Position numbers and translations under genes: made by a program. Shown here piece after piece: positions 58,393 through 64,000 of a DNA stretch of 64,000 nucleotides. Each line of letters opens with the position of its first letter. Position 1 is the stretch's first letter. This stretch comes from Pontiella sp. Its GTDB lineage: Bacteria > Verrucomicrobiota > Kiritimatiellia > Kiritimatiellales > Pontiellaceae. Under the pieces are notes generated by a model, which saw only the letters and a list, made by a program, of their open reading frames with translations, made no database searches and was not told the origin of the DNA. Location of the stretch: contig JBNKHE010000011.1 in the NCBI GenBank assembly GCA_050290185.1, positions 35,677 to 99,676 on the forward strand, written 5' to 3'.

Positions 58393-58469
58393 GGGCTCGT
58401 AGCTCAGTCGGTCAGAGCAGGAGACTCATAATCTCTTGGTCGGGGGTTCAAGTCCCTCCGAGCCCACCA
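58393..58469 (+). tRNA. tRNA with CAU anticodon, most likely tRNA-Ile2 (lysidine)
   Basis: GGGCTCG-TAGCTCAGTCGGTCAGAGCA-GGAGA-CTCATAA-TCTCT-TGGTC-GGGGGTTCAAGTCCCTC-CGAGCCC-ACCA; G1-C72 is paired and there is no GGG:CCC anticodon stem, so it is not fMet. Confidence 0.9.
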
Positions 58470-58583: not shown

Positions 58584-58608
58584 AATAACCCCACAATAAC
58601 CCCACAAT
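58584..58608. repeat. Direct repeat, candidate integrase arm-type sites
   Basis: AATAACCCCAC twice plus AAT, about 115 bp from the tRNA 3' end. Confidence 0.6.
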
Positions 58609-58779: not shown

Positions 58780-58916
58780 AGGAGGATTCCGCGTGACAGG
58801 TTCCTGTGATGGGATCGCGTCGCGGTCCTCAGGGTGACGCCAGCAGCGCGAGGCCCCCCGGCCCCCCTTTGGGTCCCATCCGCCATAGGGTGGGGTGAGT
58901 GGATCGTTCCTCTCAG
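58780..58916. repeat. Conserved 137-bp GC-rich element, copy 1
   Basis: Direct repeat of 60956-61098. Confidence 0.95.
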
Positions 58917-59006
58917 GATTCCTGTGTGCACGTTCACTGGATTGCTCGCGCAAGACTGTGATATATGTGCCTGTAGGAATCCTCGTAGATCGTGGGGATG
59001 ATCCTT

Positions 59007-59081
59007 ATATGTATAAAAAAATCGATTTTTTATACACATTGTCCCCTACATGTATATATTTCGGCTATAAATTAAACATGT
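59007..59081. promoter_or_regulatory. Tandem palindromic operators upstream of fic
   Basis: ATGTATA-N15-TATACAC and ACATGTATA-N16-TAAACATGT. Confidence 0.6.
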
Positions 59082-59101
59082 GCTGTAACTGATGAGGTCC
59101 C

Positions 59102-60181
59102 ATGGCATTTAAACTTAAACCTTTACCTCCCTCCTGCGAACTGGAAAGCAAGGCTGTGCTCAAGCAGGCTCTTGCGGCGAACCGTTGCCTGGCCGAATTG
59201 AAAGGGCTGTCTCCCTCGATCCCGAATCAGGGGATTCTGATCAATACCTTGGCCATGCAGGAAGCCAAGGACAGCTCCGCCATTGAAAACATCATTACAA
59301 CGCAGGATGATCTCTTCAAGGAAACCGCATTTCCGGAGTTTGCGCAAAATGCCGCAGCCAAGGAGGTGGCCAACTATGTATCCGCACTCCGTGTTGGGTA
59401 TCAGCGGGTTCGTGAAACCGAAATGCTGACCGCCAACCACCTGATTGAAATTCAGACAGAACTGGAACGCAACCGGGCGGGTTTTCGCAGGCTTCCGGGA
59501 ACCGAATTGAAGAACCTTGAGACCGGGGAAGTGATCTATACCCCGCCTCAGGATTCGGCTGAAATCATAGAGCTCATCAGCAACCTGGAACGTTTCATCA
59601 ACGACAATGACTATTTCAATGCCGATCCGCTGGTTAAGATGGCGATTCTGCACTACCAGTTTGAAAGCATCCACCCGTTCTATGACGGCAATGGTCGAAC
59701 GGGCCGTATCATCAACGTGCTATATCTGGTTTTGCAGGGATTGCTTGATATTCCCGTGCTGTATCTGAGCCACTATATCATCAGGACCAAGTCCGATTAT
59801 TATCGCCTGTTGCAGGACGTGCGCGAAAACGAAGCCTGGGAGGAATGGATTCTGTATATGCTGACTGCGGTAGAAAAAACCTCCATGTCAACCATCCGGC
59901 TGGTTAATGGCATCCGCGAGGCCATGCAGGACTACAAACACCGCATTCGGAGGGATTTCAAGTTCTACAGTCAGGACCTGGTCAATAACCTCTTTTTCCA
60001 TCCGTATACGAAAATCGGGTTTGTGGAAAAGGATCTGAAAGTCACTCGGCTGACGGCCACCAAGTATCTGGATACCCTCGCAGACGCCGGATTCCTCCGA
60101 AAGGAAAAGCTGGGTCGGTCCAACTATTTTATCAACCTCGCCCTCTACAACCTACTCAGTAAGGAAGAACAGAGTGATTGA
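59102..60181 (+). CDS. Fic family adenylyltransferase with C-terminal winged HTH
   Basis: Active site HPFYDGNGRTGR, N-terminal inhibitory motif SSAIEN, C-terminal 'VTRLTATKYLDTLADAGFL'. Confidence 0.93.
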   Translation: MAFKLKPLPPSCELESKAVLKQALAANRCLAELKGLSPSIPNQGILINTLAMQEAKDSSAIENIITTQDDLFKETAFPEFAQNAAAKEVANYVSALRVGYQRVRETEMLTANHLIEIQTELERNRAGFRRLPGTELKNLETGEVIYTPPQDSAEIIELISNLERFINDNDYFNADPLVKMAILHYQFESIHPFYDGNGRTGRIINVLYLVLQGLLDIPVLYLSHYIIRTKSDYYRLLQDVRENEAWEEWILYMLTAVEKTSMSTIRLVNGIREAMQDYKHRIRRDFKFYSQDLVNNLFFHPYTKIGFVEKDLKVTRLTATKYLDTLADAGFLRKEKLGRSNYFINLALYNLLSKEEQSD

Positions 60182-60189
60182 TGGGGTAT

Positions 60190-60699
60190 AGGAGCACGGG
60201 GCGGCTTGCCGTACGGCGTGACCGAAGCCGACTTTTTTGGCGGCTGCTCCGTTCCGCGCAACAAGGAGATCATGCGCGTTTTCCGCGATTTGGAAATTGT
60301 CGAGCACCTCGGTTCCGGTGTGCCCATATCCTGAAAGCCTATGGCCGGGATGCATTCGAAATCGGGGACAGTTATGTCCGCATCGTTTTCCGCTTTAAAA
60401 CGGTTTCGTCGGGCGAAAGTTCACCGAAAACGTCGGAGAAAACGGATGGTGCAATCGGTGGTGCAATCGGTGGTGCAGTCGGGTTGACAGACCGGCAGAA
60501 TCAGATTGTTCAGCTGATTGCAAGGGATTCAAAGATGACCTATAGGCAAATCGCTCAGGTTTTGAAGATTAATGATTCTGCCGTCATTAAGCACATCAAG
60601 GCGTTGCGCGAAAAAGGCGTTCTTAGGCGTGTAGGCGGAACCCGCGGACACTGGGAAGTCCTCGATACCGACAACGATCAACCATCAACCAACAACTGA
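60190..60699 (+). pseudogene. Remnant of an ATP-binding transcriptional regulator (HATPase_c_4/RecG-C-like plus HTH)
   Basis: One frame reads GLPYGVTEADFFGGCSVPRNKEIMRVFRDLEIVEHLGSGVP, then frameshifts near 60325 into HILKAYG...HTH...RVGGTRGHWEV; the N-terminus is missing. Confidence 0.75.
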
Positions 60700-60756
60700 T
60701 TCTATGAACCTGTCGCAATAACACCCGAAGTTCACATAGCTTTTGGTGATGTTGGC

Positions 60757-60927
60757 TCATGCCTCCTCATAGGGTTCCCCGCGTGCAAAAGCCTCTATCT
60801 CGGCCTGATCGTACCGAACCTTCCTTTGCGAAAAGTGGTATTGCTTGAAATTCCCTCTTTTCGCGTACCGCGATACTGACTTGGGGTGAACTTGCAGGAT
60901 TTCGGCGGCCTGCTTGATGGTAATCAT
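60757..60927 (-). CDS. Excisionase/AlpA-like small HTH protein
   Basis: MITIKQAAEILQVHPKSVSRYAKRG...KVRYDQAEIEAF, 56 aa. Confidence 0.8.
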   Translation of the reverse strand: MITIKQAAEILQVHPKSVSRYAKRGNFKQYHFSQRKVRYDQAEIEAFARGEPYEEA

Positions 60928-60955
60928 CCGCCTTTTAGGCTTCGGGTTGCGGTCA

Positions 60956-61098
60956 AGGAGGATTCCGCGTGACAGGTTCCTGTGATGGGATCGCGTCGCG
61001 GTCCTCAGGGTGACGCCAGCAGCGCGAGGCCCCCCGGCCCCCCCCCCCCTTTGGGTCCCATCCGCGATGGGGTAGGGTGAGTGGATCGTTCCTCTCAG
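60956..61098. repeat. Conserved GC-rich element, copy 2 (143 bp)
   Basis: Identical to copy 1 except for a C12 versus C6 tract and 3 substitutions. Confidence 0.95.
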
Positions 61099-61294: not shown

Positions 61295-62785
61295 ATGTCA
61301 GGGGATCAGATTACATTGCAGGCTTTGGAGCGTCATCTTTGGGAGGCGGCGCATATTATTACGGGACCGATCGACGCATCGGACTATAAGACCTATATCT
61401 TCCCGATCCTGTTCTTCAAGCGGGTCTGCGATGTCTACGACGAGGAGTTTGCTCAGGCCATGGAGTTTTATGGTGATGAGGAAATGGCCCGTTCTCCGGA
61501 ACAACATCGCATTCAGGTTCCGGAAGGCTGTCATTGGCGTGATGTCATCGAAACCACTTCGGATGTCGGGAAGACGCTAAAATCCGCCTTCATGGGCATC
61601 GAAAAGGCGAATGAACGGTTGTACGGAATATTCGGTGACGCCTCCTGGACCAACAAGGAACGCTTGCCGGATCATCTCCTTCTCCAGTTGCTCAACCATT
61701 TCAACAAGATGGACCTTAGCGTTCAGCATGTGCGCGTCGATGACATGGGCCGCGCCTATGAATACCTGATCAAGCGTTTCGCCGATAAAGCCAACAAGAA
61801 GGCCGGCGAGTTCTACACCCCGCGCTCCATTGTACGGCTGATGGTGAACATTCTTGATCCGCAACCCGGTGAGACGGTCTATGACCCCGCCTGCGGTACC
61901 GGGGGGATGCTGTTGGAAACCGTACACCATGTGAAAGAACAGGGCGGTGACCCGCGCCTGCTGACGCTCAAGGGGCAGGAGAAAAACCTGACCACCGAAG
62001 CCATTGCCCGCATGAATCTCTATCTGCACGGCATGGAGGATTTTGAAGTCCGGCGCGGCGACACCCTGCGCGATCCAAAGTTTCTGGTGGCCGACCGGCT
62101 GGAGCAGTTTGACTGCGTAATCGCCAATCCGCCATTCAGTCTCAAGGAATGGGGCTATGATTCATGGAGCTTGGACCCATTCAATCGGCATGGATTCGGC
62201 TTGGCTCCCAAGACCAATGGCGACTTTGCCTGGGTCATGCACATGTACTCCTCCATGAAGACTTCGGGCCGTATGGCGATTGTGCTGCCGCATGGGGTGC
62301 TGTTCCGTTCCGGGGCTGAGGCGAAAATCCGCAAAAAACTACTGGATCAGGGAGTCATCGAAGCCGTAATCGGCCTAGCCGGCAATCTGTTCTACGGCAC
62401 CGGCATTCCCGCCTGCATCCTAATCCTTCGCAAAACCGAACGGAATAAAGCACCCGTCCTCTTTATCAACGCCGAGGAAATCTACACCAAGGGCCGAGCC
62501 CAGAATACCATGAGTCTGGAGCAGTCCGATGAAATCTACGGCATCTACCAATCGCAGAACAAAAAAGCCCATGAGCAGGAAGGGGTCAGCCGCTGGGTGG
62601 AATACATCGAGCTCAAAGAAAACGACTTCAACCTGAACATTGCACGCTATGTCCAGAAGCCGCTGGAAGAGGAGACCATCACCGTCGAAGAGGCTCTGCG
62701 CGACTTTAAGGAAAAGCTTTCTGCTCTCGAAAAGGCTGAGGATGAGCTGGAGTTACTGCTGGAGCGGGAAGGATTCGAGCTATGA
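61295..62785 (+). CDS. hsdM: Type I R-M methyltransferase subunit M1 (NPPF type)
   Basis: LWEAA, GEFYTP, DPACGTGG, ANPPF and PHGVLFR motifs. Confidence 0.95.
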   Translation: MSGDQITLQALERHLWEAAHIITGPIDASDYKTYIFPILFFKRVCDVYDEEFAQAMEFYGDEEMARSPEQHRIQVPEGCHWRDVIETTSDVGKTLKSAFMGIEKANERLYGIFGDASWTNKERLPDHLLLQLLNHFNKMDLSVQHVRVDDMGRAYEYLIKRFADKANKKAGEFYTPRSIVRLMVNILDPQPGETVYDPACGTGGMLLETVHHVKEQGGDPRLLTLKGQEKNLTTEAIARMNLYLHGMEDFEVRRGDTLRDPKFLVADRLEQFDCVIANPPFSLKEWGYDSWSLDPFNRHGFGLAPKTNGDFAWVMHMYSSMKTSGRMAIVLPHGVLFRSGAEAKIRKKLLDQGVIEAVIGLAGNLFYGTGIPACILILRKTERNKAPVLFINAEEIYTKGRAQNTMSLEQSDEIYGIYQSQNKKAHEQEGVSRWVEYIELKENDFNLNIARYVQKPLEEETITVEEALRDFKEKLSALEKAEDELELLLEREGFEL

Positions 62786-63768
62786 TATGCAACGTGCCAC
62801 GAAAAGATTATTCCTCCATTTATCGCGCTTTACACGCTGGGATTTCTGAGGCGTTAAAGGACCCATCACAGGGGGAGCCCCAACTTGTTGCGAATTTGGT
62901 CCACCATATAGCATCCTCGATTAATGGTGTGGGCGCTCTTTCCAATGGGGCGAATGTGAAATCAGGCGGAGTATTCGTTCATGCCACTCCAAAGGTTATC
63001 TGTAATTCCTTCCCTGAGTCTTCCCCTGGATATGTAGAGATTGGTGATCTGTTGTTGTTGCGGACTGAAATTGTCAATGGGCAACTAAGGTCACGTTCAG
63101 CGTTGCTGCTTCAGGCGAAGCGTGAGTCGGGCCTTCCAGCTACTCCCGATAACGCCAATCAATTATATTTGTATGAATATTGGCCAGAGTTTGAATATCA
63201 TAAATCCGGACCTGTTTTAACTGGTAAGAAGAGAGCTGTAACTGGGCCGGACCTATATAATGCAGCTAAATATCTAGTTCTTGGGAATGATCCTTCAAAG
63301 TTGCTTTTGGTTGATCCGTGTTGTTGTTTTTATCCATTTCATTGTGGAATCAATGCTGTGACCGCGCAGCCAATTTCGCCCAGTCTTGGGCATCATGAGT
63401 GCTTTCTGTTTGAATTGATCAGGTTCATTTTCCACGATGCAGGGAAACCGTACCATTATCCAGTTCCGCCTCTGGACTGTGGATGGAGTCGCGTGATCGA
63501 CGACCTTGTTAAGGTTGCAGCTCCCAAGAAGATGCCCCCTAAAATCAAAAATGCAGGTTCCTTGCGTGGACAGGGTTTCTTTTTCGTAACAGGCAACTTT
63601 GATCATAGCGATGGCATGCTTAAAACATATGCTAATTATTCGTCGAATGAGCCTCCAGAGGATATTCCCGGAGAGTGGAGTGAAGGGGAAGAGTTCGGCC
63701 CGGTCGGGATTTCGACCATTGAGTTCGTTGTAGAATCAGAAGGCGAGCAGGACAGACGCAGGGATTAG
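62782..63768 (+). CDS. Hypothetical protein with a putative PD-(D/E)XK-like nuclease motif
   Basis: AT-richer than its neighbours, ATGA-coupled to hsdM1, contains 'EIGDLLLL...ALLLQAK'. Confidence 0.7.
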   Translation: MICNVPRKDYSSIYRALHAGISEALKDPSQGEPQLVANLVHHIASSINGVGALSNGANVKSGGVFVHATPKVICNSFPESSPGYVEIGDLLLLRTEIVNGQLRSRSALLLQAKRESGLPATPDNANQLYLYEYWPEFEYHKSGPVLTGKKRAVTGPDLYNAAKYLVLGNDPSKLLLVDPCCCFYPFHCGINAVTAQPISPSLGHHECFLFELIRFIFHDAGKPYHYPVPPLDCGWSRVIDDLVKVAAPKKMPPKIKNAGSLRGQGFFFVTGNFDHSDGMLKTYANYSSNEPPEDIPGEWSEGEEFGPVGISTIEFVVESEGEQDRRRD

Positions 63769-63813: not shown

Positions 63814-64000
63814 ATGAGCCTATCGCAACAACAACTGGAAACCATGCTTTGGGGGGCGGCGGAGCATCTGCGCGGGCAGATCGATGCGTCGGACTACAAG
63901 CAGTATATCTTTCCGCTGCTTTTCTATAAACGGCTGTCGGATGTGTATGCCGATGAATATGCCGAGGCGCTGGAGTTTTCCGACGGCGATTCCGAGTATG
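63814..64000 (+). CDS. hsdM: Second type I R-M methyltransferase subunit M2, 3'-partial (absent from the ORF track)
   Basis: MSLSQQQLETMLWGAAEHLRGQIDASDYKQYIFPLLFYKRLSDVY aligns with the N-terminus of M1. Confidence 0.9.
   Translation, partial: MSLSQQQLETMLWGAAEHLRGQIDASDYKQYIFPLLFYKRLSDVYADEYAEALEFSDGDSEY

Follow-up and report, generated by a model that had tools for sequence, protein, structure and literature searches.

Which function can be assigned to two non-coding direct repeats that lie behind a tRNA gene in a Pontiella sp. genome? The window analysed here is a stretch of 64,000 nt from assembly GCA_050290185.1 (contig JBNKHE010000011.1). All coordinates are window positions unless a contig is named; G000 denotes this genome, and C9, C10 and C107 are contigs in it. 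Copy 1 of the repeat is located at 58780-58916 (137 bp, plus strand), copy 2 at 60956-61098 (143 bp, plus strand). The copies are 2176 bp apart and, apart from six extra C in the C-tract of copy 2 and three substitutions, identical. In all these respects the preliminary description of the locus was accurate. It had proposed a phage packaging site or, alternatively, an RNA controlling a xis-like gene or an origin of transfer (oriT). We find that the right half of the repeat holds a two-box site which marks the tRNA-proximal end of an island family in a Pontiella-like genus. These islands are a new family resembling phage-inducible chromosomal islands (PICIs), and their conserved end signal probably serves packaging.

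A conserved two-box core

Homology is confined to the right ~70 bp of the repeat, which comprise a C-tract, box 1 (TTTGGGTCCCAT), a variable spacer, box 2 (TGGATCGTT) and a GGA.TC tail. In copy 1, this core, the putative pac-type site, extends over 58853-58925 (plus strand) with box 1 at 58868-58880, a 20-nt spacer and box 2 at 58900-58910. In copy 2, the boxes are found at 61050-61062 and 61082-61092. Box 1 occurs among the homologues as TTTTGGTTCCAT and TTTTGGTACCAT, too. The spacer is free in sequence, and its length is 19-20 nt in 14 of the 16 aligned copies and 15 and 17 nt in the other two. In addition, the site displays an imperfect inverted symmetry, G..CCA-N-TGG..C. The ACAGG/CCTGT and GATGGGA pairings belong to the left ~75 bp, for which no homologue exists besides the two copies, and BLAST of the repeat against phages and plasmids yielded short matches only, all to this non-conserved half. 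The flanks of the copies had been described as sharing little or no similarity. This holds overall, but a weak similarity continues for ~10-20 bp beyond the right end, where it is part of the conserved consensus.

The wealth of potential pairings had suggested a cis-regulatory or antisense RNA. The pairings exist, but they do not exceed what the base composition yields: Single-strand folding of the four repeat strands gave z values of -0.78, -0.04, 0.08 and -0.06, which is about the level of shuffled sequences. The consensus fold of 16 homologues contains six pairs, and its covariation term is zero. For the CCC/GGG hairpin, the CCCATC hairpin and the box-1/box-2 pairing, 95, 297 and 437 of 500 shuffles, respectively, equalled the covariation score. 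An Rfam scan (E-value and gathering score) detected no family in the repeat, with the tRNA as sole match. A scan of the repeat for promoters and terminators remained at chance level and revealed no sigma-70-like promoter. The repeat is not a structured RNA. A role as leader of the xis-like gene (HTH_17, phrog_66; 60757-60955, minus strand) had been suggested by the in-frame ATG at 60927, only 29 bp from copy 2. However, the left edge of copy 2 cuts off the 5' part of this gene: About nine residues precede the helix-turn-helix of xis, compared to ~40 or more in seven homologues inspected (~43 extra N-terminal residues). Therefore, the proximity of copy 2 and xis reflects a breakpoint and not a leader. 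Furthermore, in four more complete islands xis occupies the opposite end, at a distance of 7-25 kb from the site. An RNA that controls xis is hence very improbable.

The kept core, the spacer of fixed length and variable sequence and the lack of covariation therefore indicate a protein-binding DNA site. It is very likely that the two-box sequence acts in cis, as a DNA site of an island family. Four copies are present in G000: the two in the window, one at C9:1320 and one at C10:102107-102172. A strict pattern matched 5 of 401 genomes of the class, every one of the genus, and its reversed control none. A refined model matched 10 of 53 genomes of the genus, so the core is found outside this genome; among 36 other genomes of the order it gave one weak match, inside an open reading frame (ORF). 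Four of nine GTDB pattern matches are real, and the taxa among the matches are Pontiella, Pontiellaceae, Kiritimatiellales and one unclassified Verrucomicrobiota. From metagenome contigs, two of ten pattern matches are real. Two model matches within ORFs (L091 on G027:C314 and L271 on G055:C31) were dropped as chance. The 19 site loci counted below include a half site (L087) and a weak one (L090).

Islands, small terminase and the case for packaging

Twelve of the 19 loci have a tRNA or a tRNA 3' remnant on the same strand within 1 kb upstream (~90-450 bp), compared to ~0.8% per locus expected by chance. CAT-type, Leu, Arg, Asn and Lys tRNAs are represented. Two of the other seven loci are cut by the contig start, and five are devoid of a tRNA (window copy 2, C9, L085, L087 and L090). 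Four more complete islands share one layout: tRNA/att, site, first gene and defence cargo are followed on the opposite strand by replication genes, xis and integrase-attR. G341:C2 (13.7 kb, att-bounded) encodes a primase and a DUF5906 helicase. G032:C11 (18.9 kb, att-bounded) has the tRNA and chromosomal neighbourhood of the window and encodes a DUF3987 protein. G002:C157 (~10.3 kb, its left end being the contig start) carries Rep, primase/DnaB and a small terminase gene (terS), and the island on C10 (28.3 kb, att-bounded) a polymerase-like remnant and terS. Integrase and attR as well as HTH_17/phrog_66 xis-type genes are present in all four. Head, tail, lysis and large terminase (terL) genes found no match among the scanned island ORFs (one scan at E<=1e-12, ORFs of 90 aa or more). 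G007 has a fifth unit bounded by att (14.7 kb), which contains cargo; no integrase was seen in the stretches listed. Att-bounded islands occupy the CAT-anticodon tRNA site of the window in both G032 and G007.

terS, the neighbour that the preliminary description had counted in favour of a packaging site, was indeed found right behind the site in C10 and G002. It is the first island gene (C10:101542-102021 and G002:C157:239-691), encodes 150-159 aa and begins 138 nt behind box 1 in C10 and 228 nt behind it in G002. Its family is linked to Terminase_2 by phrog_641 (E 1e-3). Of 17 profile matches, two are above the PF03592 cut-off and four more below, with an hhalign value of 95% to one. The top three PDB fold matches of a terS model (pLDDT 73) are the SF6 small terminase, and many viral terS are found in addition. 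This terS is of the Terminase_2/SF6-SPP1 (headful, pac) type. In islands G341:C2 and G032:C11, terS was not found by tblastn. A PDB sequence search with the terS alignment returned nothing relevant, word patterns detected no relatives in IMG/VR, and across the phylum the terS profile retrieved two distant matches of prophage type, both without the site.

Judged by sequence and gene context, the chances are slightly better than even that the two-box site is a pac-type packaging signal of tRNA-integrated PICI-like islands. According to this proposal, an island would be excised by integrase and Xis and replicated by its own primase. A TerS ring, either island-encoded or supplied in trans for members lacking terS, would bind both boxes, which are ~two helical turns apart. 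Then, TerL of a helper phage would be recruited and cut, and headful packaging would begin. The model for these packaging steps are terS-bearing Staphylococcus aureus pathogenicity islands (SaPIs) and pac-mimicking PICI-like elements (PLEs); one report (PMC11417361) deals with pac sites that lie within or upstream of terS and with satellites that mimic pac.

The preliminary description had seen the element as a satellite or PICI-like relic with the cosQ-cosN layout of phage lambda, whose sequences were compared here as worded there. The relic and a probable packaging signal have stood the comparison, the lambda layout has not. Two boxes at a fixed spacing with partial two-fold symmetry would suit a lambda-type cos that hijacks a cos helper, and one box 1 match in IMG/VR is located inside a phrog_9 terL and another near an HNH gene. 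However, the heptamer likened to cosQ varies (GGGTCCC, TGGTTCC, TGGTACC, GGCCCC), the terminal CCTC is not conserved, the linked terS is SF6/SPP1-like, and neither HNH nor lambda-type terminase genes were seen in the islands. This renders a cos site improbable.

Box 1 has look-alikes in phage genomes. Alone, it matched IMG/VR 10 times versus 0 for the reversed sequence, and five matches are within ~1.5 kb of terL. A looser pattern of C-tract plus TTTGGGTCCCAT gave 69 matches (L174-L242) versus 19 reversed, often intergenic before terL. Twelve of these 69 lie at most 600 bp from a contig end, compared to 1 of 19 controls (not dereplicated). After dereplication, terL was found within 2.5 kb of box 1 in 10 of 51 clusters and in 0 of 12 control clusters (local search with Pfam/PHROG checks). 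In seven of the 51 clusters, the motif precedes the terL frame by 200-1220 bp on the same strand, which corresponds to a binomial p of 8e-7 to 8e-4 given a prior chance of 1-3% that we estimated ourselves. No IMG/VR match of box 1 continues convincingly into box 2. Fourteen matches of a looser two-box pattern in IMG/VR were judged to be chance.

Several observations speak against a packaging signal. terS follows the site in just two of the 19 loci (C10 and G002), and the first gene in G341:C2 and G032:C11 is a conserved ORF of 147-154 aa instead. The same terS family is represented at four further loci, in which terS is the last gene of an operon and no site is nearby, and the full site is absent near 14 terL and five terS matches in prophages of the genus. 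All fold matches of the terS model have E>0.01. The full two-box site has 0 matches in IMG/VR and none among INPHARED phages, and no helper phage that carries it was found there. The proximity of box 1 to terL is not significant against the reversed control (Fisher p=0.10). No terL was seen in 41 of the 51 clusters, and two of the seven clusters with box 1 upstream of terL were seeds of the local search. In addition, the loci are kin and not independent of each other.

The main rival, which we regard as rather unlikely, is a regulatory or recombination-accessory DNA element, i.e. an operator or promoter of the first gene or a binding site for Xis, integrase or a host factor near attP. It would account for the position of the site, always close to the att end and ahead of whichever gene comes first (terS, the 147-154-aa ORF or cargo), and for its imperfect inverted symmetry. 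In the circular form, the site would also lie between the divergent starts of integrase and first gene. On the other hand, its distance to att varies between 90 and 450 bp, it is combined with different tRNAs and divergent integrases, and the arm-like repeats are separate from it. Moreover, phage genomes and the region before terL are enriched in box 1, and the repeat has no sigma-70-like promoter.

A part of the island replication origin has to be considered because of four loci (L019, L045, L050, L087) with an A-tract and an iteron-like block 160-185 bp downstream of the site. Next to primase remnants in another island (L104), the block is found again and forms an inverted repeat. However, the site is common to islands with different replication modules and located at the far end from them, and the iteron-like block is not found in this genome. 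An origin is about as improbable as a cos site. Mobility genes were not seen near the four loci, which may be miniature att-site-origin elements.

Even less credit can be given to an oriT used in trans by the relaxase of a plasmid or an integrative and conjugative element. The site resembles mobilisable islands in its position near att at an island end, and an integrative element with ATPase genes is located upstream of one G007 copy. The proposal was weakly tested and gained no support: The core has no plasmid match in BLAST among 72,556 records, and terS behind the site argues for a different role. Furthermore, no relaxase-like ORF turned up in the four islands, although a dedicated relaxase-profile search was not performed, PHROGs are poor for relaxases and Pfam coverage was partial.

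The packaging reading can be extended. Satellites with terS, defence islands without it and miniature att-site-origin relics would then share one genus-wide signal, with TerS supplied in trans, and box 1 (C-tract and TTTGGGTCCCAT) would be a motif that lies close to the terminase in many uncultured pac phages and has so far escaped notice. We consider this extension doubtful. If true, box 1 would provide a sequence handle for predicting packaging starts.

Relation to known satellites

A close likeness is to terS-bearing PICIs and SaPIs without a capsid-morphogenesis gene (type B), as described in 10.1101/2022.09.14.508007. They share with the islands integrase, a putative helix-turn-helix regulator/xis, primase-replicase and, in some, terS. 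Similar are also the att-bounded extent (10-28 kb in the islands), the defence cargo and the lack of terL and structural genes among those seen. Of the five core components listed there for PICIs, the intact islands possess three or four: A primase-replicase is present in G002, G341 and G032 and a small terminase in two of four islands. In contrast to PICIs, terS of the islands is situated at the tRNA end behind the site and converges on the replication operon, and most members are devoid of terS. The text searched of that report does not mention 'Verrucomicrob'; the host group of the islands is a Kiritimatiellia-like genus.

The tycheposons of Prochlorococcus, as described in 10.1101/2020.12.28.424599, match the islands in layout: They, too, use tRNA targets, have an inward-facing tyrosine integrase at one end, xis and a small replication module, carry cargo or terS, and build islands with partial tRNAs and degenerate fragments. 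Membership requires an integrase of the tycheposon lineage and hallmark profiles (10.1101/2020.12.28.424599). In the text covered, cargo was not observed in any PICI-like tycheposon, in contrast to G002 and C10 with both terS and cargo, and a shared end motif is not reported. Like the islands, PLEs are satellites with a short and conserved cis sequence that precedes packaging genes. However, the PLE site matches that of a known helper, ICP1, and is proven (PMC11417361), whereas here phage look-alikes are available for box 1 only. The islands without terS resemble PICMIs (phage-inducible chromosomal minimalist islands), small integrated satellites with int, an alpA-like gene, primase and defence cargo and without capsid genes. 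PICMIs adjoin fis, lack terS and have no identified pac site according to PMC10803314.

In the literature covered, which did not extend to supplementary motif lists, nothing was found on satellites or genomic islands in the Pontiella/Kiritimatiell group or on the motif GGGTCCCAT together with a terminase. If correct, our reading defines a phage-satellite family that has a candidate signal for packaging and is found in a marine genus of the Planctomycetes-Verrucomicrobia-Chlamydiae (PVC) group for which the searched literature has none. It would also explain the pile-up of restriction-modification and other defence cassettes behind tRNAs in this genus. As pac sites are hard to spot from sequence, a two-box site and its cognate TerS would be a compact and directly testable system.

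The window locus and neighbouring observations

The duplication in the window itself is merely a relic. Between 58470 and the contig end at 64000, integrase, replication module and terS are absent, i.e. lost as far as the contig extends, and of the PICI components only the truncated xis is left. Alone, the locus does not qualify as a PICI. Copy 2 is likely the start of a second, stacked island. We propose that two sister islands were stacked at one tRNA and that a deletion then took integrase, attR and the 5' part of xis of the first island, so that the remainder of xis would now abut the site of the second. The outcome would be two non-autonomous site copies. A precedent for stacking is given by att remnants on C10 and in G007. 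An attR for the window tRNA was not found elsewhere in the assembly, save for a distinct tRNA copy on C107.

An assembly artefact is an unlikely origin of copy 2, because a contig from run X2 matches 60207-61043 without mismatch across the xis/copy-2 junction and because the right half of copy 2 agrees with the C9 copy at 59 of 68 positions, but with copy 1 at 54 of 68. Runs X1 and X2 possibly represent the source samples; among the pieces listed, none crosses the right junction of copy 2. The left half of copy 2 equals that of copy 1 and its right half is nearer to C9; therefore, these sequences suggest that recombination among site copies likely contributed to the pair, too. The locus is polymorphic among sediment assemblies: Another X2 contig joins 58940 to 60212, which is a form without the fic cassette (58941-60211), and assemblies X4 and X6 have an extra base at 60322, within the HATPase/HTH fragment.

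The tRNA upstream (58393-58469, plus strand) has a CAT anticodon and was classified by ARAGORN as tRNA-Met; it is probably tRNA-Ile2. Its 3' end is the likely attL. A tandem 11-bp direct repeat at 58584-58606 (plus strand) is a likely arm-type site of the integrase. Comparable 8-11-bp tandem repeats are found between tRNA and site in other loci, where they are nearer to the tRNA and distinct from the site. As described before, the repeats bracket three genes: a SoFic-type fic gene as cargo cassette (59102-60181, plus strand), a 5'-truncated, frameshifted fragment with HATPase_c_4 and winged-HTH parts (60200-60699, plus strand) and the HTH_17/phrog_66 ORF. The pseudogene contains a 12-bp tandem repeat at 60447-60481, of which an X6 contig has one more unit. 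Behind copy 2, a type I restriction-modification methyltransferase gene (61295-62785), an ORF of 328 aa without family match (62782-63768) and the start of a second HsdM-like gene (63814-64000, contig end) follow as cargo, all on the plus strand. The two HsdM-like genes flanking the 328-aa ORF are 71% alike at their starts (61337-61469 versus 63847-63979).

Other loci add further details. The conserved 147-154-aa ORF is located just behind the site at L287:629-1093 and L288:19436-19879 and has no Pfam or PHROG match. In the ESM Atlas, it hit Verrucomicrobiota clusters (0.96) and a cluster of viral DNA polymerase III beta N-terminal domains (0.89), which is a lead only. C10:73828-108239 of G000 is a tandem island array with tRNA(CAT) 3' remnants between the islands. 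The second C10 island (from 102457) lacks the site and has a terS that is different and PF03592-positive, together with integrase, xis and a Rep-like gene; it represents a second satellite type in this genome. Divergent extra copies of tRNA(CAT) occur on the short G000 contigs C18, C36, C41, C43, C67, C98 and C107 and possibly stem from strain variants or from different organisms that are included in the bin. On C9 (1320-14869), type III restriction-modification-like genes as well as those of an SNF2 helicase and a KAP-like NTPase lie behind a site without upstream tRNA; this site is 16.7 kb from a tRNA(CAT) and oriented towards it. L085 (G422:C65:3257-3341) has a full site ~215 bp past the end of a rex-like regulator gene and no tRNA, possibly an integration at a protein-coding gene. 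In the G032 island at the tRNA of the window, the cargo (L288:9447-11859) includes an AbiEii gene and a SMODS-domain nucleotidyltransferase gene next to a small one.

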